The notes: generated from the sequence alone by a model not told the origin. Positions 9,250 through 58,354 are shown, counted from the first letter of the stretch. The stretch: DNA of 64,000 bases from Alkalispirochaeta sp. (GCA_965242725.1 CBDESZ010000018.1:352001-416000); one strand, 5' to 3'. Translations and numbers: made by a program.

Positions 9250-9267
9250 GAGTCCTCCTCGTTCCGG

Positions 9268-10080: not shown

Positions 10081-10081
10081 C

Positions 10082-10774
10082 TTACCGGTCTTCCCTGGCG
10101 AATGCCGCGATGTCGTATTCCTGGCCGATGAGGAGGAGCCGATCGAGCTTCCCCACCACCGTCGCCGCCTCGGGCAGGACAAAGCGAGTCTGTGAAATTT
10201 CGTTGCCATCCTCGTCGGTCGTGAATTCCATGCGGCGAATACCGACGACATTTATCTTGAACCGTTTTCGCAGGTCCAGCTCCATGAGCGTCTTGCCCTG
10301 TATGGGCGAAGGAGGATCAACGGCGACAAACTGGTATGCATCTTCAAGGACCGCCAGACTTTCGAGGCCGCCCTGAACGAGTTCTCCAGCGAGGCGGTCC
10401 GCCGCCTGTGACTCAGGGTTTATGATACGGGTGACACCAAGCTTCTCAAGAATTTTGCGGTGGACCGTACTCACCGCACGGGCGTATATCAGCTCAACCC
10501 CGAGCTCCTGCAGATTCAGGGTGGTGATAACACTGCCTTCGGTGTGTTCACCGATCGCAACGATAACGGCATCGGCATCGGAAACGTCGGCCCGCTTCAG
10601 TATCGCCGGATCGGTACTGTCGCCGATCATTGCGCGGTCGACGACGTCTTTCATGAGCTCCACATTGTCGGCGATGCTGTCGACGGCAATTACCTCCGCG
10701 CCTGCCCGCTTCAATGACCTGCACAGAAATTGACCGAAGGTCCCAAGCCCAAGAACGACCACTTTCTTGCTCAT
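10082..10774 (-). CDS. ktrA: Potassium uptake regulatory subunit, TrkA/KtrA family (RCK_N + RCK_C)
   Basis: VVLGLGTFG Rossmann motif, GDSTD, IYARAVS, INPE, LDLRKRFKINVVGI. Confidence 0.9.
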   Translation of the reverse strand: MSKKVVVLGLGTFGQFLCRSLKRAGAEVIAVDSIADNVELMKDVVDRAMIGDSTDPAILKRADVSDADAVIVAIGEHTEGSVITTLNLQELGVELIYARAVSTVHRKILEKLGVTRIINPESQAADRLAGELVQGGLESLAVLEDAYQFVAVDPPSPIQGKTLMELDLRKRFKINVVGIRRMEFTTDEDGNEISQTRFVLPEAATVVGKLDRLLLIGQEYDIAAFAREDR

Positions 10775-10789
10775 TCGTCTCCTCCATGC

Positions 10790-12193: not shown

Positions 12194-13179
12194 GGGAGAA
12201 GCCCTGCCTTTCTGATAACCGACATCGCCGCCAGTCCATCTTTCAACGTCGACCTTGAGGCGGCGGAGGGATCATCGGCGAGTCGCACCGCTTCCGCCAT
12301 CATGCCTGAAAAATAATCACTGGGACGGGGAGGCCGATACTCGGCATTCATCAACGAACGATAGGCGGAGTAATGGAGGCTTGGGCGGCTTCGGGACCAG
12401 GAAAAAATCCCGTTGCCTACCCGTATTTCCCCGTCGGAAAATGAGAGAACTATCTCAAAATGCAGATAGTTGCGCTGTGCGCCGATCTCGATTGCCACCG
12501 GTACGCCGTCACGGCGGGTCGTTCCGTGGAGAAATACTGAAGATCGGGTACTGCGGTACCGACCGACTTTCCTCCTGAGAGTAATCTCGTCGTCCGTGAG
12601 GAAATGGATAGCGTCCACCATGTGCGTCCCGTCGTGCAGAAACACGTGATCATGGCGCGCGGAGGAGCCGAAGTAGAGTCTTCCTGTTACACCGATAAGT
12701 TTTCCAAGCTCCCCGTTCAGAACCGCCGCCCGTGAGCGCAGATAGTCCCGGGAGAAACGCCGTTCGTGGTTTACCACCACTTTCACCTTCCCCGTATCCT
12801 CCAGAGCCGCCATCTTGCGACCGATGTGATAGGTGGGGGCCACAGGTTTTTCACAAATGACGACGGGCGTTCCGTATTCTGCTGCGGTACGCACATATTG
12901 GTAGTGCGTCGGCGGGTGCGTCGCAATGACAAGGATATCCGGTCGTTCCACATTCATGAACTCGGCAACTGTCGAATAGGTCGGCACCGACCACCGACGG
13001 GAGAAAAGTTCTCGCCGCTCCTCCGCCGTATCAACACCGCCGACAATACGGCACCGGCTGTTTACAGCCGCTGCACCGGCGTGAGTCGCAGGCTTCTCCC
13101 GAAGGGGATCATCCTCCAGCAGTGACGCGATCCGCCCGAGTCCCACAAAACCGACCAGAATTGACCGTTCCCGTTCCAT
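12190..13179 (-). CDS. Gfo/Idh/MocA family oxidoreductase
   Basis: GFVGLGRIA, ICEKP, VNHERRF, DGTHMVD; start taken at MERERS. Confidence 0.85.
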   Translation of the reverse strand: MERERSILVGFVGLGRIASLLEDDPLREKPATHAGAAAVNSRCRIVGGVDTAEERRELFSRRWSVPTYSTVAEFMNVERPDILVIATHPPTHYQYVRTAAEYGTPVVICEKPVAPTYHIGRKMAALEDTGKVKVVVNHERRFSRDYLRSRAAVLNGELGKLIGVTGRLYFGSSARHDHVFLHDGTHMVDAIHFLTDDEITLRRKVGRYRSTRSSVFLHGTTRRDGVPVAIEIGAQRNYLHFEIVLSFSDGEIRVGNGIFSWSRSRPSLHYSAYRSLMNAEYRPPRPSDYFSGMMAEAVRLADDPSAASRSTLKDGLAAMSVIRKAGLLP

Positions 13180-25532: not shown

Positions 25533-26435
25533 TTACACCTCATTTCGATAGAGGGGATGAATTTTCTTTCTGTATTCCTCGTAGCCTTCGTCGGCGTGAT
25601 AGGAGGAACGGACGAGCGGGCCCGCGTCGCAGTGCGTGAATCCCCGTTCCATGGCAGCATCTTTCAATGCCGCAAATTCCTCGGGCAGCCAATAGCGCTG
25701 GACCGGAAGATGGGTCCGCGACGGCTGAAGGTACTGGCCGATGTTGAGAAGCTGCACGTCCACCCCGCGGAGGTCGTCCATGGTGGTCGTGATATCCTCA
25801 ATGGTCTCGCCGAGGCCGACCATGATGCTGCTCTTTGTCACAATCCGCGGCGCGTATTCCCGGGAGTAGCGCAACACCTCGAGTGACCGGTCATAGTCGC
25901 TGCGGGACCGCACCTGTCTTGTCAGGCGGCGCACCGTCTCGATGTTGTGGCTCATGATTTCAGGTTCGGCGTCCAATACGGTGGCGATTGCCTCCCGGTG
26001 TCCAAGGAAATCGCCCGTCAGCACCTCCACGGTGCAACCAGGAGCGTCACGATGTATCGAATTGACCGTCGCGGCCATGATTGCCGCGCCTCCGTCCTTG
26101 AGATCGTCACGGTTGACCATGGTGATCACCACGTGTTTCAGTTCCATCTTTCGGACCGATTCGGCAACGCGTTTTGGCTCGCCCACATCGACGGCACCGG
26201 GCAACCCCGTCTTGACCGCGCAGAATCGACAGCGCCTGGTACAGGTATCGCCGAGGATCATGAAGGTCGCCGTCCGATGCACGCCCCAGCATTCATGAAT
26301 ATTGGGACAACGCGCCTCTTCACACACCGTATGAAGGCGCTCTTCCTTCATGAGACGTTTCAAATAACGGAAGTTGTCGCTGGTATTGAGTTTGATCTTC
26401 AGCCAGTCGGGTTTTCGAACTACGTCGGCACTCAT
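25533..26435 (-). CDS. lipA: Lipoyl synthase
   Basis: [26 protein letters not shown] radical-SAM motif, VRSSYHA. Confidence 0.97.
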
Positions 26436-26441
26436 GGATTC

Positions 26442-26511
26442 ATGGTATCGAAGTTGCCACCATGCGACAACCGCCGGCGTTATTGACAGACCTTCCACCC
26501 CCCCGTACTGT
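26442..26511. promoter_or_regulatory. Back-to-back sigma70-type promoters for lipA (-) and the rhomboid-prfA operon (+), both leaderless-type
   Basis: Minus strand: TTGTCG-17-TACCAT-6 nt-ATG. Plus strand: TTGACA(26483)-17-TACTGT(26506)-6 nt-ATG(26518). Confidence 0.65.
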
Positions 26512-26517
26512 GGGCGC

Positions 26518-27081
26518 ATGAGAATTCGCTACAATGCACCGGTGACGCTGACGTTCGCGTTGGCGGCGTCACTTGTGCTTTTGCTTGATCAGACGGCATA
26601 TCCGAGAGTTCTGGAAACGTTTTTTATCGCTCCGGCACGGATGAATCCGGCGTCTCCCGTCGATTACGTCCGTCTTTTTACCCATGTGATCGGACATTCA
26701 AACTGGGCACATTTGATCGACAATTTTGCAGTGATCCTCCTGTTGGGACCAATCCTTGAAGAAAAATACGGATCGGGAAGCCTCCTTATGATGATCCTCG
26801 TGACCGCGCTGGTGACGGGACTTCTCAATGTGCTCTTTCTTCCCACAGGCCTCCTCGGCGCGAGCGGCGTGGTCTTCATGATGATTCTCCTCGTCTCCTT
26901 TACAAACATACGCCACGGTGAAATTCCCCTTACTTTTATCCTTATCGTGGTGCTGTATCTCGTCAAAGAGGTTGTCGCATCGCTGCAGGCCGACTCGGTC
27001 GCCCAGTTTGCCCATATCGCCGGGGGTATCATAGGAAGCATGTTCGGCTTTATGAGGCCTCGCAGGAACGGACAGGCATGA
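26518..27081 (+). CDS. Rhomboid family intramembrane serine protease
   Basis: H...HLIDN, GASG catalytic Ser, AHIAG catalytic His, multiple TM segments. Confidence 0.88.
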
Positions 27082-31630: not shown

Positions 31631-31667
31631 TTCGCGTTGATTGACACCTCCTGCGGAGGACACTACG

Positions 31668-32324
31668 ATGTCCTCCGTAATGGCTATGAGCGGTTCACAA
31701 GAACATAACCAACACGACCGACTGTCCCAGGTGACCTATGCACGACGGGTACAGACTTCGGCGCTGTTTGTGGCACTGATCGCCGCGGGGGCCTTTGTAT
31801 CCATCCCCCTTCCCTTTTCGCCGGTACCTATCGTTCTCCAGAATTTCTTCGTCGTCGCGACGGGATCCATTCTCACCGCACCATGGGCGGCGGTGACGGT
31901 GGCGGTATATCTGGCGATGGGCGCGATCGGCCTGCCGGTATTTGCAGGAGCGACGGGCGGTCTGTCCCACTTTGCGGGCCCCACGGGAGGATTTCTCGTC
32001 GGTTTTCTCTTTTCCGCGGTCCTGACCTCTCTCATTCTCCACAAAGGTTTTTCTCCCCCCGGGACGAACGGCAGCGACAGTGACGGTATTGAGACGCAGC
32101 ACGGGGGCTACAACGATTTCCACCTCATTCTGGCGCTCTTCGTCGGGTTCCTTATGCCCTACCTCTTCGGTCTGCCCTGGTTGTCCTACACAACCGGTCT
32201 CTCCCTGAAAGAGGCGCTCCCGATCGGAATGATTCCCTTTCTCCCCGGCGATCTTGTAAAAGGGATCCTTCTGTTCTTTCTTATCCGACGCATGCCACAG
32301 TCGATATGGCGTCGCTTGAAATAA
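31668..32324 (+). CDS. bioY: Biotin transporter S component BioY (start could be 31668, 31680 or 31686)
   Basis: PVPIVLQ, GLPVFAG, GPTGGFLVGF, PFLPGDLVK. Confidence 0.9.
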   Translation: MSSVMAMSGSQEHNQHDRLSQVTYARRVQTSALFVALIAAGAFVSIPLPFSPVPIVLQNFFVVATGSILTAPWAAVTVAVYLAMGAIGLPVFAGATGGLSHFAGPTGGFLVGFLFSAVLTSLILHKGFSPPGTNGSDSDGIETQHGGYNDFHLILALFVGFLMPYLFGLPWLSYTTGLSLKEALPIGMIPFLPGDLVKGILLFFLIRRMPQSIWRRLK

Positions 32325-37455: not shown

Positions 37456-40170
37456 CTACGCAACCAGTTTTCGAAGAACCGTATGCAGAATACCGCCGTT
37501 GCGGTAATACTCCACCTCGACGGGTGTATCGATTCTGCAAATCGTCTCGATCGTGGACGTCGATCCATCCTCTTTTTTGACATCCACCATAACCGTCTGT
37601 CCCGGTTTCAGTGAATCATCGACGTGAATCGTATATGACTCTTTCCCGGTAAGTCCCAGGGAATCGGCGGACGCACCGTCCTTGAACTGCAGCGGCAGGA
37701 CGCCCATACCTACCAGGTTGCTCCTATGGATACGCTCAAAACTCTCGGCGATGACCGCCTTGATTCCCAGGAGCTGAACACCCTTTGCGGCCCAGTCACG
37801 GGAGGAGCCCATGCCGTAATCCTTGCCCGCCAGGACAATGGTCGGAATATCCGCATCTTTATAGCGTTCCGCCGCCTCAAAAATGCTTACAACTTCTCCG
37901 GTGGGTACATGAGTCGTCACGGACCCCTCAGTGTCGGGAGCCATGGCGTTCCGAAAACGGATATTGGCGAAGGTTCCCCGGGTCATGATCTTGTCATTGC
38001 CGCGTCTGCTTCCGTAGGAGTTGAAGTCCTTTCGCTCCACACCCCGGCCGACAAGGTACGATCCCGCCGGACTGTCCGGAGCGATCGCCCCCGCTGGAGA
38101 GATGTGGTCGGTGGTGATGCTGTCACCGGCCTTGACGAGAACCCGCGCCGATGTAATCTCCTCGATGGGTTTCACCGTGAGATCCATATCCTTGAAGAAC
38201 GGAGGTTCCTGAATGTAATCGGACTCCTCTTTCCAGTCATAGAGCGCCGATTCCGTGACGGGAATGGCGTTCCAGTCGGGATTAGAATCTTCAAGTCCCT
38301 GGTAACTCTTTATGAATGCATCACGGTCCAGGGCCTGGCGAACGTATTCCTGCAGTTCATCTGCGGTCGGCCAGATTTCGTGGAGATACACGGGATTCCC
38401 CGACTGATCGTGACCGATCGGATCGCTTGAGAGATTGATATCCACCGTACCGGCAACGGCGTAGGCTACGACAAGCGGCGGCGACATGAGGAAATTGGCC
38501 TTCGTGTGGGGGTTGATACGTCCCTCAAAATTACGGTTCCCCGAAAGAACACCGGCGACGACGAGATCCTCCGCTTCGATCGCCTTTGCAATGTTTTCCG
38601 GTACGGGTCCACTGTTCCCTATGCAGGTGGTGCAGCCGTACCCGACAAGATAAAATCCGAGTTTTTCAAGATATGTCATCAACCCGGTACGCTGAAGGTA
38701 TTCGGTGACCACCATCGATCCCGGAGCAAAACTCGTCTTGATCCACGGCTTTCGGGTCAGTCCCTTTTCCACGGCTTTCTTTGCGAGAAGCCCCGCGCCG
38801 AGAAGGACACTCGGGTTGCTCGTATTTGTACAACTTGTAATGGCGGCTATGACCACGTCGCCGTGGGTGAGCTCCTTGCGGGATCCCTCATCCATGACGG
38901 CAGGTGAACTCTTCCGTATGTCCCCGTCGTCCAGGCCGTATCCGCCCTTTGCCACGGGAGCGCGAAGCATTGCCCGCCACGCGTCCTTGACGTTCTTCAC
39001 GGCGATCCGATCCTGGGGACGTTTCGGACCGGCAATGCTCGGTTCAATCTCATCAAGGTTCAGTTCAAGGACAGCCTCAAATTCCGGATCCGGCGTATCG
39101 TCTGTACGGAACATTTCCTGGGCCCTGGCATACTGTTCCACCGTTTTGATCTGCTCCTCCGGTCTGCCCGTTGCCCACATATAATCAAGAGTCTGCTGGT
39201 CTATCGGGAAATATCCCATCGTCGCGCCGTACTCGGGAGCCATGTTCGATATCGTCGCCCTGTCGGGAACGGTCATTTCACTCAACCCCGGTCCGAAGAA
39301 CTCGACAAACTTGCCGACAACGCCGTGTTTACGGAGCATTTCGGTTATACGAAGGACCAGGTCCGTCGCGGTGATACCCGGGCGAAGTTTTCCGGTAATC
39401 TTCACCCCCACTACCGCCGGCGCGAGGACGTATATCGGTTGCCCCAGCATCGCCGCTTCCGCCTCAATGCCGCCGACACCCCATCCGACGACACCAAGCC
39501 CGTTGATCATCGGAGTGTGGCTGTCGGTTCCAACAAGAGAATCAAAATAGGCTACCCTGCTGCCGTCAACGTCGCGCACCTGAACGCCTTTTCCGAGATA
39601 TTCAAGGTTCACCTGATGGCAGATGCCGCTCGCAGGGGGAACGACTGAAAAATTCTCAAATGCCCCCTGCCCCCATCGCAGAAATTCGTATCGCTCGCGG
39701 TTCCGCTGAAACTCAAGTTCCGCGTTCTTGCGAAGCGCCTCACTGCTGTTGAAGAAATCGACCTGAACCGAATGGTCGATAACGAGGTCTACAGGTAATT
39801 CAGGATTGATTTTTGCCGGATCGCCGCCGAGACGTGATACGGCGTTGCGCATCGCCGCCAGGTCGACGACGCTGGGAACGCCGGTGAAATCCTGCAGCAG
39901 TACACGTGCCGGCTTAAAGGGTAATTCAACTTTTGCCGGGCCGGCGGGATTGTAATTCCCAATGGCGTCGATATGTTCTTTGGTGACTTCATAACCGTCT
40001 TCATGACGTAAAATGGATTCCAACAGGACCCGTATTGAAAACGGCAGCTTCCGGACATTTGGAAATACCGTTTCAGCGAGATGGGCGACGCTGTAGTACT
40101 GTACATCTCCCAATGCGGTTTGCATTGTCTGCTTTGAATTGTAACTATTTCCCACTGAGGTTTGGCTCAT
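37456..40170 (-). CDS. acnA: Aconitate hydratase A
   Basis: [53 protein letters not shown]. Confidence 0.97.
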
Positions 40171-40258
40171 TCCTATCTCTCCTTAAGGTTATTATACTGA
40201 CCCTACGGGGTAGTCGACTACACCATAGGCCCGTGGTATAGTGCGGGCGGGAGAGTTT

Positions 40259-43200
40259 ATGGTTACTGATAAATTCAACAATACCGAAGTCCTGCGGTCT
40301 CTCTATTCGACGATGGTTACGGCTCGTCACATGGACCTTATCGAGCAGAGCTATACGTCCCGGGGTGAAGCTTTTTTCCACGTCTCCGGTGCGGGGCACG
40401 AGGGCTCCATTGCCCTGTTTCCCCATTTGACCGAACATGACTGGCTTCACTGCCATTACCGCGACAAGGCGCTCATGCTTGCCCGGGGAATTTCTCCCTA
40501 CATGTTCTTTCTCAGTCTCTTCAACAAGGACGAATCCCACTCCCGGGGTCGACAGATGAACGCCCATATGAGCGACCCTGAGCGAAAGGTGTTGAGCATC
40601 GTCGGACCCGTCGGAAACAGTGCCCTCCAGGCGGTGGGCGTCGCGGAAATGGTGAAAGATGATGAAACCAACCCGCTCGTCCTGTGTGCCCTCGGAGAGG
40701 GAATGACCCAGGAGAGCGAGGTCCTTGAGGCGATCGGTCACGCCGTACGGGAAACGCTACCGGTCCTCTTCGTCGTTCAGGACAACAAGTACGCCATATC
40801 CACAAAGACGACAGGTAAGACATTCTATTCCCGCCCCTCCGGCGAGGCGGATGAGTTTTACGGCGTGCCCATTACCCGCATAGACGGAAGAAAGGTTCCC
40901 GACGCGGTTACACACTTCGGGACACTTGTCGATGCCATCCGCCGCGACAGGGGACCCCGGATCGTCATCTTTGAGGTGGAACGGCTTCACAATCACACAA
41001 ACGCAGACGATCAGCGGGTCTACCGTAATCCCGATGAAATCGCGGCGGCCGCAGAAACGGGGGACCCCGTGGCACTGCTTCGGGCCCAGCTCATGGCTGC
41101 CGGAGTGAATGAAGACGAGCTTACCACCGAGGAGGAGGAGATTCGGACTCGCCTCGAGGGAGAAGCGCGTCGCGCCCAGATGAGTGCCGAGCCGACGCCC
41201 GTCCACGGCGCCAAGGCGCCCCTTCCGGCCCGCCTTGAGGAGCGCAGCGGCGAGTACACCGGAGACGGCGAGGACTCACTGGTCATGCTCGAGGCGATCC
41301 GGGAAGTACTGGATGCCCGAATGGCACAGGACGACCGGGTCACCCTCTTTGGAGAGGATATCGAAGACCCCAAGGGCGACGTCTTTGGTATCACCCGGGG
41401 ACTGGGGAAAAAATACGGAAAGAGAATCAGAAACAGCCCCTTGAGCGAATCTCTTATTCTGGGAGTCTCCATAGGAAGGGCCCTCGCGGGGGGACGTCCG
41501 GTGGCGTTTCTTCAATTTGCCGACTTCCTGCCCATCGCGTACAACCAGATTTTTTCTGAACTGGGGAGTATGTACTGGCGAAGCGACGGAGGCTGGAAGG
41601 TACCGTTGATCGTCATGGTGACCGCCGGCGGCTATCGTCCCGGACTTGGACCGTTTCACGCATCCACCCTGGAGGCGCTCGTCGCCCATACGCCGGGCGT
41701 GGATGTTGTCATGCCGTCCACGGCGGGCGATGCGGCGGGACTGCTCAACGCCGCCTTTGAATCGGAGCGTCCGACAATCTTTTTCTATCCAAAGAATCAG
41801 CTGAACGATCGCGCCCGTATGACAAGTTCCGACGTGGCGAGACAGATCGTACCCCTCGGTGTGTCCCGACGTGTACGGGAGGGTTCGGACCTCACGATCG
41901 TGGCCTACGGCAATACCGTTCCCCTTGCCCAACGTGCTGCGGATGAGCTGGCAGACCAGGGTGTGTCCGTTGATCTTCTCGATCTGCGGAGTATCGTACC
42001 CTGGGACGAGGATGGGGTACTGAAGAGTGTAGACCGTACCGGTCGGCTCATTGTGACCCACGAGGACAACCATACCGCCGGATTCGGCGCCGAGGTTATC
42101 GCGACCATCGCCGAAAAAAGCCGTCGTCACATCGCCGCTCGCCGGGTCACCCGGGGAGACACCTATGTGCCCTGTAATTTCGGGAACCAGTTGGATGTTC
42201 TCCCGTCGTACAAGCGCATACTTGAGACGGCGGTGGAACTTCTGGGGGGAAGTATCGTCTGGAAACGGGACGACGCGGCGGAAAGCGGCGTCTTTGAGGT
42301 GGAAGCGATCGGTTCCAGCCCGTCCGACGAGACGGTAACGGTGGTGGAGTGGAAAGTTAAACCGGGCGATGTTGTAAAGGAGGGAGACCTCCTCGCCGAC
42401 GTCGAGGCCGACAAGGCCGCGACTGAATTGAAATCCCCCGTCTCGGGGACGGTGTCGGAACTCATTATAGAAGAGGGTGATAACGTCCCGGTGGGTACGC
42501 CGATCCTGCGAGTCAAAACGGCGGAAAACGAACCCGTTCATGTCAAACCGCTGACAAGGGAAAATCCCGGAACTCCCGTCATTACCGGAATCGGTCGGGA
42601 CGAAGGCGACGCTCCCGGGGGATCCACCCCGGCAGCTTCCTCCGTCCCGGTAGCCGCCACGGTGCGACGTGTCGACGGGCCGGTCTGTCTCATCGCAGGT
42701 ACCGCCGTCCGGAAGGGATCACGAATCGTCGAAAACGCGGAAATCGCAACGATGACTCCCGACTGGGAAGGCGACGACATCGAGAAACGGACGGGCATTG
42801 CCAGGCGCCACTGGGTCGTCCCGGGAGAGGACACGCTCACCCTCGCCGTCGATGCGAGTCGGGAGCTCCTGGATTCCAAAGAGATCGATATTTCGGACAT
42901 CGGCTTGATCATCTTTTCGACAGGTACCCCGACAAGCACCACTCCCTCTATGGCGGCGCTCCTGCAGCACGCGCTGAATACGGAGGGCGTAGACATATCA
43001 TGTCCCGCCTACGACATCAACGCCGCGTGTTCGGGATACATATACGGACTGCAGATCGCATGGGACTTTCTGAGCAACAGCCCGGACAGACTGGTTCTTC
43101 TGGTGACCAGTGAAGTCCTCAGTCCCCGTCTGGATATGCGCGACGGAGGTACGGCACCGATATTTGGCGACGCCGCAACGGCCACCCTCATCGGCGGTTC

Positions 43201-43654
43201 CCGTTCACCCGTCGCGGATGCCGCGTATGCGTCGGTGGATCGACCATTCATCGCCACAAAGGGAGAAAGCGGCGAGTCGCTGCGGGTTCCCCACGAAATT
43301 GATGTTCCCATTACAATGGATGGACCGGCGGTCTACCTGGAAGCGGTTCGGGCGATGATGCAGGCCCTCTCGTCCGGTGCCGATGCGGCAGGAATCAAGG
43401 CCGACGCCCTGGACCTCTACATTCCACATCAGGCCAATCAGCGAATCATCAACGCCATCCGTCAACGCCTCAAGGTTCCCCATGATCGGATGTACAGCAA
43501 CATCGCCGATAACGGAAACACCTCTTCAAGCACGATACCGATTTGTCTCAATGAACTGCTCCCTGACGGCTCCGGCGGCGGGCAGGTGTGGGGTATCACC
43601 GCATTCGGCGGGGGATTCACATACGGCGGTGCGTTACTGCGTACGCTGTCATAG
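40259..43654 (+). CDS. Fusion protein: 2-oxoacid dehydrogenase E1 alpha + E1 beta + lipoyl domain + 3-oxoacyl-ACP synthase III (FabH-like)
   Basis: E1a: HYRD, ThDP motif GEG...QDN, HNHTNADD. E1b: GEDI, SPLSES, QFADF, GPFH, DLRSIVPWD. Lipoyl: VEADKA. KAS III: RTGI..R, AACSG, FGDAA, PHQAN, GNTSS, AFGGG. Confidence 0.9.
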   Translation: MVTDKFNNTEVLRSLYSTMVTARHMDLIEQSYTSRGEAFFHVSGAGHEGSIALFPHLTEHDWLHCHYRDKALMLARGISPYMFFLSLFNKDESHSRGRQMNAHMSDPERKVLSIVGPVGNSALQAVGVAEMVKDDETNPLVLCALGEGMTQESEVLEAIGHAVRETLPVLFVVQDNKYAISTKTTGKTFYSRPSGEADEFYGVPITRIDGRKVPDAVTHFGTLVDAIRRDRGPRIVIFEVERLHNHTNADDQRVYRNPDEIAAAAETGDPVALLRAQLMAAGVNEDELTTEEEEIRTRLEGEARRAQMSAEPTPVHGAKAPLPARLEERSGEYTGDGEDSLVMLEAIREVLDARMAQDDRVTLFGEDIEDPKGDVFGITRGLGKKYGKRIRNSPLSESLILGVSIGRALAGGRPVAFLQFADFLPIAYNQIFSELGSMYWRSDGGWKVPLIVMVTAGGYRPGLGPFHASTLEALVAHTPGVDVVMPSTAGDAAGLLNAAFESERPTIFFYPKNQLNDRARMTSSDVARQIVPLGVSRRVREGSDLTIVAYGNTVPLAQRAADELADQGVSVDLLDLRSIVPWDEDGVLKSVDRTGRLIVTHEDNHTAGFGAEVIATIAEKSRRHIAARRVTRGDTYVPCNFGNQLDVLPSYKRILETAVELLGGSIVWKRDDAAESGVFEVEAIGSSPSDETVTVVEWKVKPGDVVKEGDLLADVEADKAATELKSPVSGTVSELIIEEGDNVPVGTPILRVKTAENEPVHVKPLTRENPGTPVITGIGRDEGDAPGGSTPAASSVPVAATVRRVDGPVCLIAGTAVRKGSRIVENAEIATMTPDWEGDDIEKRTGIARRHWVVPGEDTLTLAVDASRELLDSKEIDISDIGLIIFSTGTPTSTTPSMAALLQHALNTEGVDISCPAYDINAACSGYIYGLQIAWDFLSNSPDRLVLLVTSEVLSPRLDMRDGGTAPIFGDAATATLIGGSRSPVADAAYASVDRPFIATKGESGESLRVPHEIDVPITMDGPAVYLEAVRAMMQALSSGADAAGIKADALDLYIPHQANQRIINAIRQRLKVPHDRMYSNIADNGNTSSSTIPICLNELLPDGSGGGQVWGITAFGGGFTYGGALLRTLS

Positions 43655-43754
43655 CGAGCTATTCGGGCAGGGTCGCCCACACCGTGCGACGACTCACCAC
43701 GGCGTGTAACACCACCGGCGATCGTCCGTCCGGACGAGCAAACCGACGGGACAT

Positions 43755-43823
43755 AAAAAAACCCCGGGGCAAAGGAGGTGAAATCCCCGGGGTGTACGTC
43801 ATTGGTACTTGCTTGGTCTATCG
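43755..43823 (-). ncRNA. Candidate small RNA / terminator with anti-SD loop (copy A), downstream of msrB
   Basis: Minus strand ACCCCGGGG-atttcacctcctttg-CCCCGGGGT plus T-tract, preceded by GGTGTAACC-N13-GTTGTT at 43856-43829. Confidence 0.55.
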
Positions 43824-43879
43824 TTTATAACAACACACGGCGTGGGTGGTTACACCATCGACACCGATTTTTTCTTTTT

Positions 43880-44527
43880 TCATCCCTCCGGTTTGAGAAT
43901 CGCCGGAGGTTCTTCTCCTTCCGGAACAAATACAAGCGCGGCGGAATTGAGGCAGTAGCGCAGACCCGTCGGTTCAGGTCCGTCGGGAAAAACGTGGCCT
44001 AAATGGGAGCCACTCATACTGTCGACGACTTCGATGCGTACCATGCCATGACCACGGTCGACGTTATACCGGACCGCATCGGGAGACAGGGGTTCATAAA
44101 AACTGGGCCAGCCGGAACCGCTGTCGTATTTTGCGTCCGAGCTGAACAGGGGCTGTCCCGTTGCCGCGGAGTAATAGACACCCTTTTCCTTGTTTCCGTT
44201 CAGGACGCCGGTGAACGGTGCTTCCGTACCCTTTTCCCGCATAATCCGGAACTGACTGTCGGTGAGACGCTCTTTCCACTCCTCTTCCGTGAGTACCACG
44301 GGAAAACTTCCATCCACTGGAAATGACTCAACCAGTTCCCGTTCCCTGGGACTGAGGCTGTTTTGAATTGCCTTATCGATCGCTCTATCCTCCTCGTCAC
44401 TGAGACGATTGCTCTCAATGTCCTGTTCCGCAGGAACTGTTGCACTATCAATCCTCCCCCGGGCGTACACCCCTGATGCGAGGACGACGAAACTCAGGAC
44501 AACCAGCCAACCGTCACGGACACACAT
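43880..44527 (-). CDS. msrB: Peptide-methionine (R)-S-oxide reductase with signal peptide
   Basis: [34 protein letters not shown]; hydrophobic N-terminus. Confidence 0.93.
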
Positions 44528-51272: not shown

Positions 51273-51277
51273 ACCCC

Positions 51278-52345
51278 CTATCCGTGTCGCTTTACAGACT
51301 TCTCCGCCTTCCGTTTGATGCGATTCCAGATACCCGACATCCCCATTGCCTTGCGAACTTCCTGCAGTGTTTCCCGTGCCACAGTTCGCATCGTCTCCGT
51401 TCCCCGGTAGATAACCTCGTCCACCAGCCCCGATTGGCGGGCGTATTCTTCCCGCTTCTCCCTGATGGGATCGAGAAAGGCATTGAGTGCCGCGGCAAGC
51501 TTTTCCTTGACCTCAACATCACCGACTCGTCCCGCCCGGTACCGTTCCTTCAGGTCCCGTACCTCTTCTCGATCGGGATTGAAGACGTCGTGATAGCTGA
51601 AAACCGGGTTCCCCTCGACCGTGCCGGGCACGTCCGCGCTGATCCTGTTGGGATCGGTATACATTCCCCGGACTTTCCTGTTCACCGTCGCGCCGTCGTC
51701 GGAAAGCATAATGGCGTTGTTGAGAGACTTTGACATCTTTGACGCGCCGTCGGTCCCGACGAGGGTGGGAACATCGCCTACCATGACATCCGGGACCGGG
51801 AAGACGTCACCGTAGAGATAGTTAAAACGACGGGCAATCTCCCGTGTCAGTTCCACATGCGCCTCATTGTCCTTGCCGACCGGAACGAGGTGGGCTCGGG
51901 GCAGCAGAATATCGGCGCTCTGCAGGACGGGATAGCCAAGCAATCCAAACGGCATTTCCGTCAGATTGGCGTTCCGGGCCATATCCTTCAGGCTGGGAAG
52001 ACGCTGCAGCCGGGGTACGGTGACCAGCATCTCCAGAAGAAGATTGAGTTCATAAATTTCCGGCACGGCACTTTGGAGATAGATCGTCGACCGCTCCGGA
52101 TCGATCCCGACGGAGAGATAGTCAAGGACCATGTCACGTGCGTTTTGCGCGATTTCATCGATGGCGCTCTTCTCCGGCCGCGTCGTCAGGGTATGGAGAT
52201 CTGCGATGATGAAATAACACTCATATTCATCCTGCAGTCGAACGCGGTTCTGCAGCGATCCTACATAATGTCCGAGGTGAAGTTTTCCCGTCGGCCGGTC
52301 TCCCGTAAGGATTCGTTTCTTCTGCTCACTCACTGGTTGCCTCAT
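51278..52345 (-). CDS. trpS: Tryptophan--tRNA ligase (start 52345 or GTG 52333)
   Basis: [39 protein letters not shown]. Confidence 0.96.
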
Positions 52346-53592: not shown

Positions 53593-54984
53593 TTAGAAGT
53601 GGATCGCCCACCCTTCGGCGGCACGGGCGCTTTCCATCACCGCCTCCGAAAGCGTCGGATGGGCGTGAATCATCGTCGCAATGTCCTCCGGCAGGAGTTC
53701 CGCCTTCTTGGCAAGAAGGAGCTCATGGATCAACTCCGTGGCATTGTACCCGACGATGTGGGCACCGAGTATTTCCCGTGTCTCCTTGTCCAGAACGACC
53801 TTTACGAGGCCTTCGCTCTTTTCAACGGCGACGGACTTGCCGGCACCGCGATAGGGGAAGGTCGCCACATCAACGGGCCGCTTCCGCTCCTGTGCGGCCT
53901 TTTCGGTCAGACCGAAACTGCCGATCTCCGGTTCGCAGTACACGGCGGACGGAATCGACTGGGGATCAATTTTCGCCTCCGGCGAGTGGCCCGCCATGTA
54001 TTCAACGGCGATTTCTCCCTCTTTGCTTGCCACATGGGCGAGAAGCGGTGAGGCGATGACGTCGCCGATTGCGTAAACGCCCGGCACGGACGTCTGGTAA
54101 TAGTCACCCACGGTGATGAACCCCTTTTCCGTCTTCACACCGATTGTATCAAGACCGAGATTTTCGGAGTTGGGCGCCCGCCCGACGGCAACGAGGATCT
54201 TGTCTGCGTTGAGGGTCTCCTTGGAGCCGTCGGCGCTTTCCACATCCAGCTTTATTCCTTTGCCCTTGGTGTCCAGATTTGTCGCTTTTGTACCGGTCAT
54301 CGTTTTCACGCCGTACCGTTTGAACGCCTTTGCAACGATGTCCACCGTTTCGGCGTCTTCAAGGGGCAGCAGCTGATCAAGCATTTCCACCACCGTCACA
54401 TCTACGCCGAAGGCGTTCATGACATAGGCAAATTCCATACCGATCGCCCCGGCACCGAGAATGATCAGCGACTTCGGCAGCTCCGACATCCCGAGAATAT
54501 CTCGCGATGAAAGAACCTTTTTCCCGTCAAACTCAAAACCGGGAATCTCCCGGGAACGGGACCCGGTGGCAATGAGAATGTTTTTGGCGGAAATACTCTT
54601 CTTCCCGTCGATGGATACTTCATGGGCTGCGGTAAACTGCGCCGTACCCTCTATGTATTCGATCTTGTTTTTCTTGAGAAGGGACTGCACGCCTTTGGAC
54701 AGCTTGGACGCCGCGTCACGTGATTTTTTGTGAACTTTTCCGTAATCAAGGCCGCTCTTATCCACGGTGACGCCGATTTTTTGCAGCTCCTCCGTGTCGT
54801 GCATGATTTCAGCCTGATGGATAAGTGCCTTGGAGGGAATGCACCCCCAGTTGAGGCAGACGCCGCCCGGCGCCTCCTTCTCCACGACGGCCGCCTTTAA
54901 TCCGAGCTGGGAAGCACGGATCGCCGCGACATAGCCTCCCGGCCCCGCCCCTATGATAAGTACATCGTAATCGTAATCTGCCAT
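53593..54984 (-). CDS. lpdA: Dihydrolipoyl dehydrogenase (E3)
   Basis: GAGPGGY, GGVCLNWGCIPSK, GAGAIG, HAHPTLSE. Confidence 0.97.
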   Translation of the reverse strand: MADYDYDVLIIGAGPGGYVAAIRASQLGLKAAVVEKEAPGGVCLNWGCIPSKALIHQAEIMHDTEELQKIGVTVDKSGLDYGKVHKKSRDAASKLSKGVQSLLKKNKIEYIEGTAQFTAAHEVSIDGKKSISAKNILIATGSRSREIPGFEFDGKKVLSSRDILGMSELPKSLIILGAGAIGMEFAYVMNAFGVDVTVVEMLDQLLPLEDAETVDIVAKAFKRYGVKTMTGTKATNLDTKGKGIKLDVESADGSKETLNADKILVAVGRAPNSENLGLDTIGVKTEKGFITVGDYYQTSVPGVYAIGDVIASPLLAHVASKEGEIAVEYMAGHSPEAKIDPQSIPSAVYCEPEIGSFGLTEKAAQERKRPVDVATFPYRGAGKSVAVEKSEGLVKVVLDKETREILGAHIVGYNATELIHELLLAKKAELLPEDIATMIHAHPTLSEAVMESARAAEGWAIHF

Positions 54985-55012
54985 TGTTTTCCTCCCTGTA
55001 TTCCAGCTCGTC

Positions 55013-56356
55013 CTAGAAGATCATCCGGACAGGTTGTTCCATGATTCCCTGAAGATCTGCAAGGAATTTTCCACCTGCGGCGCCGTCGATAACACGATGG
55101 TCACAGGACAACGTCATTTTCATGATTGACGCGACACCGATGGAACCGTCGTCTTTGACGATCGGAGTCTTCCTGGTGGCACCGAGGGCGAGTATGGCCG
55201 AACCCGGGGGATTGATGATCGCCGTAAACTCCTCAACACCGAAAGAACCGAGATTGCTGATTGTGAACGTTGCACCGGTGTACTCACTGGGCTGGAGTTT
55301 TCCCTCCCGGGTTTTCCTGATCAGTTCCTGCAGCTCTTCATCGATTTCACGGACTCCCCTATTTCCGCAGTTCCGCACGACCGGCGTGATCAGCCCGTTG
55401 CCCAGATCCACGGCAAGACCGATATCGATGCTGCCGTACTGGACGATCTTGTCTCCCTGCCACGACGCATTGATATGGGGATGGCGCTTGATCGCCTCGG
55501 CGGCAAATTTGATGAAAAAGGCGTTGAGGGAAACTTTGTTGTCCAGCGTATCGTTGAGAAATTTTCTCGCGGCCACGATGTTTTCCATGGCAACCGACAT
55601 CTTGAGGTAGTAGTGGGGTGCGGAAAACTTGCTTTCGCTCAACCGCTTGGCGATGACCGCCCGCTTCCCTGCAACCGGGATTTCCTGGTCACCCGGCGCT
55701 GCCGCCCCCGCGGCGGGGGCGTTGCCGGTAACCGACGATGCCGGAATACCCCTGAACGATTCGATATCGCGTTTCACGATACGCCCGTCGGGACCGCTGC
55801 CGGTGACATAGGAGAGGTTGATATTCCGTTCCGCCGCGAGTTTCACCGCCAGGGGACTCGCCTTTATGCGTCCGCTTTCACCCCGCTGCGGTCCCGTCTG
55901 GGGAGCGGAACTCCTGGTTTCGTCCTTCCCGTCCGCCGGTTTTTCACTTTTCCCGGCTGTTGCCTTTTCCTGACTTTTTTCCTTTTCCCCGCCGGCCTCT
56001 TCTTTCTTTTTCCCGGCGTCGGGAGCGGGGGTACTCTCTTCTTTTTCTTCTTCTTTTTTGGCCCCCGATTCGCCGCCTTCCGCGGAGACGTCTTCCATGA
56101 TTGAGGAGATGTCCTCACCTTCCTCTCCGAGTATGGCGATCGTCTGACCTACGGTGGCGTTGTTGCCTTCGGTGACGACAATCTTGAGGAGCGTGCCCTC
56201 CTGGGTCGCCTCGTAATCCATGCTCGCCTTGTCGGTCTCCACCTCACAGAGGACGTCGCCGGCGGCGATGGTGTCGCCTTCCTTCTTATTCCAGCTCGTG
56301 ATGGTTCCCTCTTCCATGGTGGGAGAAAGAGCCGTCATCGGTATCTTTTCTGCCAT
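55013..56356 (-). CDS. pdhC: Pyruvate dehydrogenase E2 dihydrolipoamide acetyltransferase
   Basis: Lipoyl VETDKA, E3-binding ASPLA...GSGPDGRI, catalytic DHRVIDG. Confidence 0.95.
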   Translation of the reverse strand: MAEKIPMTALSPTMEEGTITSWNKKEGDTIAAGDVLCEVETDKASMDYEATQEGTLLKIVVTEGNNATVGQTIAILGEEGEDISSIMEDVSAEGGESGAKKEEEKEESTPAPDAGKKKEEAGGEKEKSQEKATAGKSEKPADGKDETRSSAPQTGPQRGESGRIKASPLAVKLAAERNINLSYVTGSGPDGRIVKRDIESFRGIPASSVTGNAPAAGAAAPGDQEIPVAGKRAVIAKRLSESKFSAPHYYLKMSVAMENIVAARKFLNDTLDNKVSLNAFFIKFAAEAIKRHPHINASWQGDKIVQYGSIDIGLAVDLGNGLITPVVRNCGNRGVREIDEELQELIRKTREGKLQPSEYTGATFTISNLGSFGVEEFTAIINPPGSAILALGATRKTPIVKDDGSIGVASIMKMTLSCDHRVIDGAAGGKFLADLQGIMEQPVRMIF

Positions 56357-56361
56357 TGGTC

Positions 56362-57342
56362 CTACTCCTTGTATGTTACCCGTTTCACTGCGGCGATTAC
56401 CTTTTCCACCGACGGCTGGATTGCGAGTTCCAGCGTGTGGTTATAGGGCATCGGCACGTCTTCACTGTGGACAAACTCCACAGGAGCATCGAGATCGTCA
56501 AAGCAATTCCGGGAGACGAGCCAGCCCACGTGTGAACCGACACTCGCCATCGGCCATGACTCGTCGATGACGACGGCCCGATTGGTCTTTCGGACGCTTC
56601 TATAAATCGTCTCTTCATCGAGGGGACGAAGGCTCCGCAGGTCGACCACTTCCGCATTAATGCCCATGTCGGCGAGCTCCTCCGCCGCTTTCAGGACCAT
56701 GTAGACCGGTTTGCCGTGGGCGATAAGGGTAACATCGTCGCCTTCCCGCTTGATATCGGCCTTGCCGAAAGGTATGAGGTACTCTTCCTCGGGCACCTCT
56801 CCCGTCCACCCGTAGGCGAGTTCGCTTTCCAGCATGATCACCGGATTGTCATCCCGTATCGCCGTCTTCAGGAGTCCCTTGGCGTCGTACGGCGTTGCCG
56901 GGGCGATAACTTTGAGCCCGGGAACATGGACAAAGAAGCTCTGCAGCGCCTGGGAGTGCTGGGAAGAGAGATACTCCGCCGGTCCGTTTGCACCGCGAAA
57001 GACGATGGGCACCTTCAGCTGTCCCCCCGACATATGGCGCAGCTTTGCTGCGTTGTTGATAACCTGATCGAGCGCGAGGAGGGCGAAGTTGAAGGTCATC
57101 CACTCCACAATCGGCCGCAGTCCGACGGTTGCCGCACCGACGGCGAGTCCGGAAAACCCGAGTTCCGTGATCGGCGTGTCCAGAACACGCTTTTCTCCGT
57201 ATTTGTCGAGAAGACCCTTACTTACCTTGTAGGCGCCGTTGTACTGCCCGACCTCTTCACCGAGGAGAAAAACCTTTTCGTCCCGAGCCATCTCCTCGTC
57301 CATGGCCTGGCGAATCGCTTCCCGCATTTGAATTTCTGGCAT
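56362..57342 (-). CDS. pdhB: Pyruvate dehydrogenase E1 beta
   Basis: GEEVGQYNGAYKVS, DTPITE, SQHSQ, DLRSLRPLD. Confidence 0.95.
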   Translation of the reverse strand: MPEIQMREAIRQAMDEEMARDEKVFLLGEEVGQYNGAYKVSKGLLDKYGEKRVLDTPITELGFSGLAVGAATVGLRPIVEWMTFNFALLALDQVINNAAKLRHMSGGQLKVPIVFRGANGPAEYLSSQHSQALQSFFVHVPGLKVIAPATPYDAKGLLKTAIRDDNPVIMLESELAYGWTGEVPEEEYLIPFGKADIKREGDDVTLIAHGKPVYMVLKAAEELADMGINAEVVDLRSLRPLDEETIYRSVRKTNRAVVIDESWPMASVGSHVGWLVSRNCFDDLDAPVEFVHSEDVPMPYNHTLELAIQPSVEKVIAAVKRVTYKE

Positions 57343-57364
57343 TCTTTACTCCTTTCGCTTCGCC

Positions 57365-58339
57365 TCAGGCGAGGATATCTTCATACATCGTATGGAGGGC
57401 CGGTTCTTCGCTCTTCTCCGCAAAATCAACGGAGTCTTGGACGATTTGCTTCATTTCATCGTCGAGCTTTTTGAAGTCCTCTTCCTTCAGGATCTTTGCC
57501 TCCATGAGCTGACTCTTCAGCTGGACGATGGGATCCTGCTTTTTGTACTGCTCCAGCTCATCTTTCGTCCGGTATTTGGCGGGATCGCTTATTGAATGGC
57601 CCTTGTACCGATACGTCTTCAGGTCAACCAGATAGGCCGTACCGCTCTTCCTGGACTCGTCGGCGACTTCCTTGAGCCCTTCATAGACATCCAGGAAATC
57701 CATTCCGTTGATCACCTTGCCCTTCAGACCGTATCCCTCGGCCTTGACTGAAAAGTCGTCGATACCGGAGACACGATGCACAGCGGTTCCCATTCCAAAG
57801 TGGTTGTTCTCCACGATATAGACAATCGGAATGTTCCAGATCTTTGCGAGATTGAGGCTTTCATGGAACGCGCCCTGATGTATGGCGCCGTCGCCGAAGA
57901 AGCAGAAGGTTACCCCCCCGTCTTCGTCGTACATGTGCTTGAATGCAACGCCCGTGGCAATGGGAATCTGCGCACCGACAATGCCGTTCCCGCCGAGGAA
58001 GTGGCGTTCGGCATCGAACATATGCATGGAACCGCCCTTACCCCGGACACACCCCGTTATCTTGCCGAAGAGCTCGGCCATGATGCTTTCCGGCGACATC
58101 CCGACGGCCAGCGCGTGTCCGTGGTCGCGATAGGAGGTAAGTATGTAGTCCTTGGCGAGATCCAGCGCCGCCACTGCACCGACCGCTACGGCCTCCTGTC
58201 CATTGTAGAGGTGGAGAAAGCCGCCGATTTTTCTCAGACCGTACATTTGTGCCGCTTTTTCCTCAAACCGGCGTATGAGCAGCATGTCCCGCAACGCCTT
58301 CATGAGAAAGTCCTTTTTGTATTTCTTGATATCCGACAT
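57365..58339 (-). CDS. pdhA: Pyruvate dehydrogenase E1 alpha
   Basis: IGGFLHLYNGQEA, YRDH, GKGGSMH, GDGA...ENN, YRYKGHS..DP; GGGAG precedes MSDIKK. Confidence 0.95.
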   Translation of the reverse strand: MSDIKKYKKDFLMKALRDMLLIRRFEEKAAQMYGLRKIGGFLHLYNGQEAVAVGAVAALDLAKDYILTSYRDHGHALAVGMSPESIMAELFGKITGCVRGKGGSMHMFDAERHFLGGNGIVGAQIPIATGVAFKHMYDEDGGVTFCFFGDGAIHQGAFHESLNLAKIWNIPIVYIVENNHFGMGTAVHRVSGIDDFSVKAEGYGLKGKVINGMDFLDVYEGLKEVADESRKSGTAYLVDLKTYRYKGHSISDPAKYRTKDELEQYKKQDPIVQLKSQLMEAKILKEEDFKKLDDEMKQIVQDSVDFAEKSEEPALHTMYEDILA

Positions 58340-58354
58340 GTTCACTCCCTCTGA

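Follow-up and report, generated by a model that had tools for sequence, protein, structure and literature searches.

The accepted ways of initiating fatty-acid synthesis are use of an acyl-CoA primer by FabH, decarboxylation of malonyl-ACP, and FabY-type enzymes. Among described systems, one of the closest to the locus analysed here is the branched-chain 2-oxoacid dehydrogenase (BCKDH) complex (E1alpha2beta2/E2/E3), which supplies acyl-CoA to FabH in Bacillus and Staphylococcus. It shares with the locus an E1 of heterotetramer type in which the ThDP motif and the two catalytic histidines are present, a lipoyl-lysine swinging arm and, in final position, a FabH-type Cys-His-Asn condensing enzyme. 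In E. coli FabH, the adenine of CoA is stacked between Trp32 and Arg151 (PMC4606726). A second parallel comes from the Qnc system (QncN/QncL/QncM) of tetrahydroisoquinoline antibiotic pathways, with SclQ1-4 for scleric acid, where QncL carries Transket_pyr, Transketolase_C and lipoyl domains on one chain and the ThDP-made unit goes to an ACP instead of being released as a CoA ester (PMC6335953). The last domain in Qnc-type systems is an E2-type acyltransferase, with an adjoining dedicated ACP as the acceptor.

The 64 000-nucleotide stretch of Alkalispirochaeta sp. DNA analysed here (the window) encodes a protein that, unlike the separate BCKDH subunits, carries E1alpha, E1beta, lipoyl and KAS III domains on one chain (Table 1) and, in contrast to the Qnc-type systems, ends in a ketosynthase. 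The gene lies in a single listed ORF (40241..43654, + strand); translation from 40259 yields 1131 residues with zero internal stops and six Pfam domains, in agreement with the original prediction of an uninterrupted fusion, linker included, of about 1130 amino acids. All three E1 domains exceeded their Pfam cut-offs (E1_dh, 126.2 bits against 22; Transket_pyr, 86.6 against 27; and Transketolase_C, 99.8 against 25.9), as Biotin_lipoyl (66 bits), ACP_syn_III (60.8 bits) and ACP_syn_III_C (83.7 bits) did their gathering scores. On whole-protein models, the KAS domain only narrowly passed PRK09352 (252.2 versus 249) and fell below TIGR00747 (224.4 versus 292.1). The lipoyl-lysine (Lys719 in E-A-D-K-A, codon 42413-42415) and the KAS III triad, i.e. 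Cys924 (AACSG, codon at 43028), His1057 (PHQAN, 43427) and Asn1087 (GNTSS, 43517), lie exactly at the codons predicted. The expected absence of E2 catalytic and E3-binding domains was likewise confirmed: neither the E2 core (2-oxoacid_dh, PF00198) nor E3_binding (PF02817) was matched in Pfam at E <= 0.01, and a string search of the protein found neither DHRxxDG nor plain DHR. Differing in both respects from the BCKDH system, the fusion would thus involve no E2 release of acyl-CoA. Its predicted model (pLDDT 89.3) shows one 24-residue disordered tether ahead of the KAS domain, and residues 754-809 are helix-free. Modelling the lipoyl domain (676-760) together with a pair of KAS domains (805-1131) gave a score of 0.00 twice, which speaks neither for nor against their contact.

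Table 1. Features of the fusion gene and of genes possibly related to it in function, in positions counted from the first letter of the window.
Feature	Position	Strand	Basis or remarks
Whole fusion gene (E1alpha-E1beta-lipoyl-linker-KAS III)	40259..43654	+	1131 codons + stop; ORF listing, translation, domain search
Shine-Dalgarno-like GGGAGAG	40249..40255	+	3 nt ahead of ATG 40259; sequence inspection
E1alpha (ThDP-binding) domain, residues 17-314	40307..41200	+	Pfam E1_dh; G146-E-G...N176-x-Y178, catalytic His246
E1beta, Transket_pyr 343-516 and Transketolase_C 537-645	41285..42193	+	Pfam; Glu397 in PLSE, His467
Lipoyl domain, residues about 678-753	42290..42517	+	Pfam Biotin_lipoyl 693-751; strands at 678-753 in model
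Post-lipoyl motif K763-P-x-T766-x-E768-x-P770-G771-x-P773	42524..42601	+	Conserved; predicted strand 772-776
Disordered tether, residues 782-805	42602..42673	+	pLDDT <50 in model; only long one in the fusion
KAS III (FabH-type) domain, residues 811-1131	42689..43651	+	Pfam ACP_syn_III 918-982, ACP_syn_III_C 1042-1128
Lipoyl synthase LipA	25533..26519	-	Radical_SAM + LIAS_N; putative tie to the fusion
PDH operon: E1alpha, E1beta, E2, dihydrolipoyl dehydrogenase	53593..58345	-	Each passes NCBIfam equivalog cut-offs
Lpd of PDH operon	53593-54984	-	Candidate for reoxidizing the lipoyl arm of the fusion

The possibility of an assembly artefact is contradicted by the recurrence of the fusion in many genomes. 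The same six Pfam domains were present in all of the best 120 database matches (57-81% identity), and the fusion occurs in 79 of the 99 genomes of the spirochaete order to which the window belongs (41 of 50 high-quality genomes; 22 of 26 genera) and in nine of 401 genomes in an even sample of the phylum. In species-representative genomes, which here span at least eight phyla, a full-length protein (at least about 1070 residues) is encoded at 57 of 64 loci. Loci were found in Spirochaetota, Kiritimatiellota, Planctomycetota, Verrucomicrobiota, Sumerlaeota, Lentisphaeria, Actinomycetota and Proteobacteria, with cultured Rhizobium and Tautonia as well as Devosia and Pirellulaceae among the carriers. 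Domain order and the short linkers are preserved at 45-52% identity over eight phyla, and the tree of the fusion (FastTree) mainly tracks phyla. Logan contigs of the best DNA dataset covered 39900-42661 with zero differences, the region 42662-43900, and with it the lipoyl-KAS junction, lying outside coverage; one contig spans 39900-42283, across E1alpha and E1beta. A search of sequencing runs listed no RNA dataset containing the sequence. Judged by comparative genomics, the fusion is neither an assembly artefact nor a chance product. Larger fusions with ACP or E3 were absent among proteins of 1981-5000 residues, which is weak evidence. Full-text literature searches, which included a preprint on verrucomicrobial fatty acids and had subscription journals outside their scope, gave no description of the fusion, in line with the earlier statement that no biochemical characterization was known.

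Residues G146-E-G, N176, Y178 and H246 of the fusion align with GEG, N222, Y224 and H291 of human BCKDH E1alpha, whereas E397 (PLSE) and H467 align with Thermus E1beta (1um9_B, 213 bits), H467 also matching His146beta of the human enzyme; this human numbering is consistent with the alignment. Across 117 aligned members and 40/40 members from other phyla, G146, N176, H246, E397 and H467 do not vary, and the same is true of Cys924, His1057 and Asn1087 (40/40 each). E716 to A720 (EADKA) of the lipoyl domain are also invariant in the 117 aligned members, with the Lys present in 40/40 from other phyla. The best solved relatives of the fusion E1 are the Thermus and human branched-chain enzymes, its E1alpha scoring 113 bits against Thermus branched-chain E1alpha, 94 against human BCKDH and 65 against human PDH; for the other E1alphas of the same genome, PDH structures ranked top. 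These PDB and NCBIfam rankings weakly suggest a branched-chain 2-oxoacid as substrate, and cannot separate pyruvate, 2-oxobutyrate and branched 2-oxoacids. Branched fatty acids are not a known feature of Rhizobium, Devosia or Pirellulaceae, which leaves room for a substrate other than a branched-chain 2-oxoacid. Our best guess is a short or branched aliphatic 2-oxoacid.

The KAS III domain matches E. coli FabH (PDB 1HN9/1HND) over its whole length (155 bits), with Cys112, His244, Asn274, Arg249, Met207, Gly209 and Asn247 conserved. It differs from that enzyme in its failure on TIGR00747, its covalently attached lipoyl domain and, as also from the FabH of the BCKDH route, its lack of the Trp32/Arg151 clamp, these positions being occupied by Asp840 and Gly963. 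Trp and Arg were each found in 0/119 members of the fusion family (0/40 and 1/40, respectively, in other phyla), their places being taken by Asp or Glu and by Pro, Ala or Gly, whereas the control set, free-standing FabHs of that order and class, retains both in 22/22. The Cys, His and Asn residues and the positions of Met207, Gly209, Asn247 and Arg249 (Arg1062 in the fusion) are conserved in 119/119 members, Arg249 in 38/40 from other phyla, and Arg36 in 107/119. At the Phe87 position, Thr or Ser occurs in 119/119 members, versus Phe, Leu or Tyr in free FabHs; a change of Phe87 to Thr may enlarge the pocket for the primer, as in mycobacterial FabH. On these alignments, the family has specifically lost the acyl-CoA adenine clamp. 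It retains the pantetheine tunnel, and the ACP-docking Arg249 is nearly always kept as well.

A split paralogue has the same three functional modules, arranged as in the fusion, and is found both in Verrucomicrobiota and in the spirochaete order of the window (cultured carriers: Spirochaeta lutea, Salinispira pacifica and Pelagicoccus). It differs in comprising two genes, in having an E3-binding domain, in its residues at the clamp and in sharing only ~30% identity with the fusion. In 5/5 loci examined in that spirochaete order, the two form an operon in which a fused E1alpha-beta gene (659 amino acids) precedes a gene for a lipoyl-E3_binding-KAS III protein (511-543 amino acids). Lipoyl and KAS III domains were found in 116 of the best 120 relatives of the latter protein, about 77 of which also had the E3-binding domain. 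The protein is uncharacterized, its source annotation being merely beta-ketoacyl-ACP synthase 3. Its clamp positions hold Tyr and Arg in 5/5 loci, and clamp loss is therefore not universal among lipoyl-KAS III modules. By its domain content, the split paralogue looks like an E2 whose core was exchanged for a ketosynthase, and its layout indicates that the lipoyl-KAS III module works with E1 and E3. In one genome (G428), an SDR gene lies two ORFs 3' of the split pair, on the same strand.

According to the original prediction, FabH replaces E2 here, so that free acyl-CoA could be bypassed. The replacement is supported indirectly by the KAS III domain standing at the position of the E2 core, the conserved catalytic residues, the lost clamp and the split paralogue; direct transfer from lipoyl to cysteine is a step we infer. 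The proposed mechanism would proceed as follows. The fused E1alpha-beta, probably dimerizing to the usual alpha2beta2 core, would decarboxylate a 2-oxoacid on ThDP and reductively acylate lipoyl-Lys719 on its own chain. The S-acyl-dihydrolipoyl arm would then enter the KAS III pantetheine tunnel and hand its acyl group to Cys924, after which His1057 and Asn1087 would drive decarboxylative condensation with malonyl-ACP to give a 3-oxoacyl-ACP for type II fatty-acid synthesis. A free dihydrolipoyl dehydrogenase, e.g. the Lpd of Table 1, would reoxidize the dihydrolipoyl arm, a step left unexplained by the fusion itself as it has no E3-binding domain. The net reaction would be 2-oxoacid + malonyl-ACP + NAD+ -> 3-oxoacyl-ACP + 2 CO2 + NADH, with no acyl-CoA intermediate. 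Overall, we favour, with some reserve, a self-contained, lipoyl-dependent primer synthase in which the acyl group passes without CoA from lipoyl to Cys924 and on to condensation with malonyl-ACP. Weighing against it are the borderline FabH scores of the KAS domain, the ordinary FabH present in most carriers, the lack of a conserved FAS or ACP neighbour, and the clamp residues retained by the split paralogue.

As had been claimed, the window contains a complete separate PDH with its lpdA, and a nearby lipA, which may serve the fusion; this genome encodes three E2 proteins (in the window, C1 and C30). The expectation that carriers might lack a standalone fabH was not borne out: this genome has two bona fide free-standing FabHs (each about 383 bits on PRK09352), nine of ten checked carriers outside the order have one, and PF08541 matches occur in 99/99 genomes of the order. 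Since most carriers retain an ordinary FabH, the fusion is, by gene content, an addition and not the housekeeping initiator. G345, a genome that is 99% complete, has no PF08541 match other than the fusion, which adjoins a FabD-ER-FabG-FabZ-KAS-ACP-AcpS cluster; this context speaks for the proposal, as do the ACP gene of Tautonia (below) and the SDR gene of G428. The Arg249 and Arg36 positions of the G345 fusion, the sole KAS III there, are Asn and Ser, which counts against the proposal. Aconitase-fusion-msrB synteny was shared with a close relative (L038) only.

The near-universal retention of ordinary FabH also favours the strongest alternative, which we regard as unlikely: the same lipoyl-to-Cys924 chemistry with a malonyl thioester, but leading to a specialized lipid or metabolite (e.g. 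a hydroxylated or ornithine-type lipid, an alkyl-resorcinol or pyrone, or a cofactor precursor) and not to bulk membrane fatty acids. Neighbouring genes point the same way in Rhizobium (genes of the fatty-acid hydroxylase and Asp/Arg beta-hydroxylase families), Tautonia (an ACP gene directly 5' of the fusion, on the same strand) and one Pirellulaceae genome (a microcompartment shell gene 3' of it); the Thr or Ser at the Phe87 position hints at an unusual acyl pocket, and the solved relatives of the KAS domain include 3-oxopimeloyl-ACP synthase. However, 15 neighbourhoods (ten spirochaete, five from other phyla) contained no conserved biosynthetic cluster or operon partner, FAS and ACP genes included, and no ACP gene adjoins the fusion within the window; the near-universal presence in the order and a tree mainly ordered by phyla fit a core lipid role. 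For a biotin precursor in particular, BLAST of G345 BioB and BioD against all ORFs of this genome (91.8% complete) found nothing at E <= 1e-5, and a BioY transporter gene lies within the window; a general biotin/pimelate (BioZ-like) role was rejected. That idea had been prompted by the only KAS I/II cluster of G345, which adjoins bioB/F/D/A.

Slightly less probable still is a purely acyltransferase role for the KAS III domain, which would stand in for the E2 core by transferring the acyl group of the lipoyl arm onto holo-ACP or CoA with no condensation. Its position is exactly that expected of the E2 acyltransferase core, and FabH catalysis proceeds through an acylated cysteine, with transacylation as a side activity. 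Yet pure acyltransferases of the KAS III fold tend to lose His and Asn, whereas the condensation residues His1057 and Asn1087 are invariant across the family, and loss of the clamp makes CoA an unlikely acceptor. Finally, that the fusion is a mere co-expression device, whose E1 and lipoyl parts serve a conventional E2 elsewhere while its FabH domain uses free acyl-CoA, is very improbable: the three E2 proteins of the genome could in principle accept or act on acyl-lipoyl, and an aromatic residue and Arg persist at the clamp of the split paralogue, but an E2 core uses the lipoyl domains tethered to it, the lipoyl domain here is tethered to KAS III with no E2, the clamp residues are practically absent from the family, and domain order and short linkers are kept across eight phyla.

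Returning to the lipoyl-dependent primer synthase, its broader reading is that the lipoyl-lysine arm replaces CoA as acyl donor of a ketosynthase, the fusion and split paralogues together forming a widespread CoA-free route from 2-oxoacids to 3-oxoacyl-ACP that may be the sole fatty-acid initiator in some bacteria such as G345; for this we consider the case evenly balanced. As the family is large, spans at least eight phyla and has cultured carriers (Rhizobium spp. and a Tautonia sp. for the fusion), the question is directly testable. If true, the fusion would offer a one-gene engineering module turning 2-oxoacids into defined (e.g. branched) fatty-acid primers with no competition for CoA pools. 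A ketosynthase primed by an acyl-lipoyl arm would start chains in a new way and put the lipoyl swinging arm to a new use, and membrane lipid composition would be linked directly to the catabolism of amino acids or pyruvate.

The fusion is encoded by a single open reading frame (window 40259-43654, + strand), which translates into 1131 residues with no stop inside. The ORF listing opens this frame at GTG 40241; the ATG at 40259 has GGGAGAG ahead of it, and homologues of the fusion align from residue 1. Six Pfam domains, each exceeding its gathering score, follow one another along the protein (see the table), and neither an E2 core (PF00198) nor an E3-binding domain was matched at E <= 0.01, the DHR string also being absent from the sequence. 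Translation and Pfam bore out in every detail the original prediction of one ORF with this domain set and with the E2 core and E3-binding domain missing, and the codon coordinates it gave for Lys719, Cys924, His1057 and Asn1087 were exact. In an AlphaFold2 model built from a 117-row alignment (pLDDT 89.3, pTM 0.70), residues 782-805 form the sole long disordered stretch. A post-lipoyl motif, K-P-x-T-x-E-x-P-G-x-P (residues 763-775, window 42545-42583), is conserved from spirochaetes to Planctomycetes, with a confident strand predicted at 772-776; in several phyla it is followed by a basic RR(R/K) run, resembling the beginning of an E3-binding domain.

Coordinates of the Pfam domains of the fusion and of the split paralogue at five loci (L129-L133)
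Feature	Coordinates	Strand	Source or gene order
E1_dh	fusion residues 17-314	+	Pfam
Transket_pyr	fusion residues 343-516	+	Pfam
Transketolase_C	fusion residues 537-645	+	Pfam
Biotin_lipoyl	fusion residues 693-751	+	Pfam
ACP_syn_III	fusion residues 918-982	+	Pfam
ACP_syn_III_C	fusion residues 1042-1128	+	Pfam
Split paralogue	L129:6232-9759	-	E1alpha-beta then lipoyl-E3_binding-KAS III
Split paralogue	L130:5040-8659	-	E1alpha-beta then lipoyl-E3_binding-KAS III
Split paralogue	L131:6495-10124	-	E1alpha-beta then lipoyl-E3_binding-KAS III
Split paralogue	L132:6334-9983	-	E1alpha-beta then lipoyl-E3_binding-KAS III
Split paralogue	L133:6423-10033	-	E1alpha-beta then lipoyl-E3_binding-KAS III

Among solved structures, the closest matches to the E1alpha part were the Thermus 2-oxoacid (branched-chain) E1 and the E1alpha of human BCKDH; this part of the fusion retains YR, GRQM..H and G146-E-G...N176-x-Y178, and the structure-sequence alignment puts His246 where BCKDH has the catalytic His beside its phosphoserine. 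The E1beta part (213 bits against Thermus E1beta) retains Glu397 (PLSE) and His467. The lipoyl turn, E-A-D-K719-A, showed no variation in 117 aligned members; the form found in Planctomycetes and Rhizobium is E-A-T-K-[SA], the lysine being retained in all 40 members from other phyla (42 labelled loci, less two with no complete ORF of 1000 residues). The whole of the KAS domain could be aligned with E. coli FabH (155 bits), and its Cys, His and Asn, together with the ACP-docking Arg249 (E. coli FabH numbering, as for the clamp positions below), are retained in 119 of 119 fusion KAS domains; in the other phyla Cys, His and Asn are each present in 40/40 and Arg249 in 38/40. Assessed as an E1 and as a lipoyl domain the fusion has the features looked for, as an E2 it lacks two of the three, and as a FabH it possesses the catalytic residues and lacks those of the acyl-CoA-binding clamp. 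Judged by these residues, every module of the fusion looks active.

In E. coli FabH the CoA adenine is stacked between Trp32 and Arg151 and is also touched by Thr28, the pantetheine being held by Arg36 and two asparagines (PMC4606726). We aligned the 119 fusion KAS domains with the annotated K-12 FabH and 22 free-standing FabHs, 20 of them drawn from other genomes in the window's order and class and two from the window's own genome. At the Trp32 position the fusions have Asp, Glu, Gly or Ser and never Trp (free FabHs, Trp in 22/22), at the Arg151 position Pro, Ala, Lys, Gly or Phe and never Arg (free FabHs, Arg in 22/22), and at the Phe87 position Thr in 118 and Ser in one (Phe, Leu or Tyr in the 22 free FabHs). 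Fusions from other phyla have Trp at the first position in 0/40 and Arg at the second in 1/40. The family has thus lost the nucleotide-recognizing portion of the CoA site, and it retains the tunnel through which a pantetheine or lipoyl arm has to pass.

A paralogue split over two genes was traced from frames of 515-566 residues carrying a KAS III C-terminal domain in genomes of the order. At all five loci a gene fusing E1alpha and E1beta (658-659 residues) precedes, on the same strand, one for a protein of 511-543 residues with ~30% identity to the fusion, in which lipoyl, E3_binding (in two of the three proteins scanned) and KAS III domains succeed one another. Two of the five genomes (G427 and G495) have the split form and no full fusion, and the other three have both; in G428 an SDR lies two ORFs downstream of the split pair. 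The split form is a large family in its own right: lipoyl and KAS III domains occur together in 116 of the best 120 relatives of the second protein, and an E3-binding domain also in about 77 of these, with source names including Spirochaeta lutea, Salinispira pacifica, Pelagicoccus and Opitutaceae. The second protein thus looks like an E2 with a ketosynthase in place of its core, and its layout would tie the lipoyl-KAS III module to E1 and E3. At the clamp positions it still has Tyr and Arg in 5/5, which makes the clamp argument less general.

The fusion is neither an assembly artefact nor rare. The same six domains were present in 120 of the 120 best matches in a collection of 5.8 billion proteins (57-81% identity), 119 of which were at least 1040 residues long; the nearest named relatives of the window's protein come from Alkalispirochaeta metagenome-assembled genomes. 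The fusion was found in 9 of 401 genomes in an even sample of the phylum (the window's own included) and in 79 of 99 genomes of its order, that is, in 41/50 high-quality genomes and 22/26 genera, many partial matches in this survey ending at contig ends. One genome (G332) yielded only a broken piece (L024, G332:C1:815171-816763; query residues 186-709) with one in-frame TGA, and in another (G210, L035:7881-11510) a gap of 126 nt (42 codons) at the E1alpha-E1beta junction separates the two matched stretches, both of which fall inside one open frame of ~1210 aa. A pattern scan taking one genome per species gave 64 loci; the 608 relatives it tallied cannot be counted as fusions because every search pattern sits within one domain. 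Of the 64 loci, 57 cover at least ~1070 query residues and belong to Spirochaetota, Kiritimatiellota, Planctomycetota, Verrucomicrobiota, Sumerlaeota, Lentisphaeria, Actinomycetota and Alpha-, Beta- and Gammaproteobacteria; cultured carriers include Rhizobium spp. and Tautonia sp. JC769. In a FastTree phylogeny of 56 full-length members (midpoint root, SH-like support only) sequences grouped mostly by phylum, with the alphaproteobacterial clade adjoining a Planctomycetaceae sequence (support 100) and Actinomycetota adjoining Verrucomicrobia (support 98), placements which suggest some lateral transfer.

The expectation that carriers might lack a standalone fabH failed. PF08541 was matched in 99/99 genomes of the order, two or more times in most, and free-standing FabHs occur in 4/5 and 5/5 of two sets of carriers examined outside it; the window's genome has two bona fide FabHs, one adjoining fabD, fabG and fabF. 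The exception is G345 (99% complete), whose fusion (L029:7995-11363), with Asn at the Arg249 position, is its only KAS III. In that genome it occurs beside a FabD-ER-FabG-FabZ-KAS-ACP-AcpS cluster (L030, G345:C5:1707000-1724000), which holds the genome's only KAS I/II and directly adjoins bioB, bioF, bioD, bioA and a biotin ligase. In the window's genome, BioB and BioD were not found with G345 queries and a BioY biotin transporter lies at window 31641-32324, suggesting biotin auxotrophy. The separate PDH operon named by the original prediction passed all four NCBIfam equivalog cut-offs, and the LipA it had pointed to was recovered. Two further E1/E2 sets have an E1alpha ranking PDH first; no separate E1alpha in the window's genome ranks branched-chain structures first, and that of the fusion alone does so.

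The fusion stands alone in the window, with a divergently oriented aconitase on one side and msrB, in convergent orientation, on the other, a synteny shared with a close relative (L038). When 10 neighbourhoods from spirochaetes and five from other phyla were compared, no common partner gene emerged. Tautonia sp. JC769 has an ACP-like gene (PP-binding) 9 nt upstream of the fusion on the same strand (L125:7324-7704, 7713-11303), and in one genome of the Pirellulaceae the fusion is followed after 7 nt, also on the same strand, by a bacterial-microcompartment shell gene with two BMC domains (L126:7327-7953). The Asp/Arg beta-hydroxylase-family and fatty-acid hydroxylase-family genes flanking the fusion in Rhizobium sp. 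ICMP 5592 (L124:7421-8266, 8359-11682, 11964-12962) hint at a lipid-modification setting. Elsewhere in the window's genome, a DpgA-like type III PKS (150 bits; G000:C16:132408-133535, L013:8408-9535, - strand) is adjoined by a methyltransferase-like gene and an FAD monooxygenase, and window 51273-52325 (~1 kb) holds no ORF of at least 90 codons by simple ORF tiling.

Among systems already described, the nearest are the Bkd complex combined with FabH, and QncN/QncL/QncM. QncL fuses E1beta-like and lipoyl domains, and the unit reaches ACP via an E2-type domain (PMC6335953). Our full-text literature search, with subscription journals outside its reach, returned no description of an E1-lipoyl-KAS III fusion. 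The lipoyl-to-KAS chemistry proposed below might instead feed a specialised lipid, which we consider unlikely, and it is somewhat less likely still that the KAS III domain transacylates with no condensation. That the fusion serves only for co-expression, with acyl-CoA used in the ordinary way, is very improbable. The best-supported reading is that the fusion is a lipoyl-dependent primer synthase, as argued by its architecture, conservation, intact catalytic residues, CoA-clamp loss and E2-like split form. We infer that its E1 would decarboxylate a 2-oxoacid and acylate the lipoyl group on Lys719, that the acyl-dihydrolipoyl arm would pass the acyl group to Cys924, and that the KAS domain would condense it with malonyl-ACP, the presumed partner, with free Lpd probably reoxidizing the lipoyl arm.
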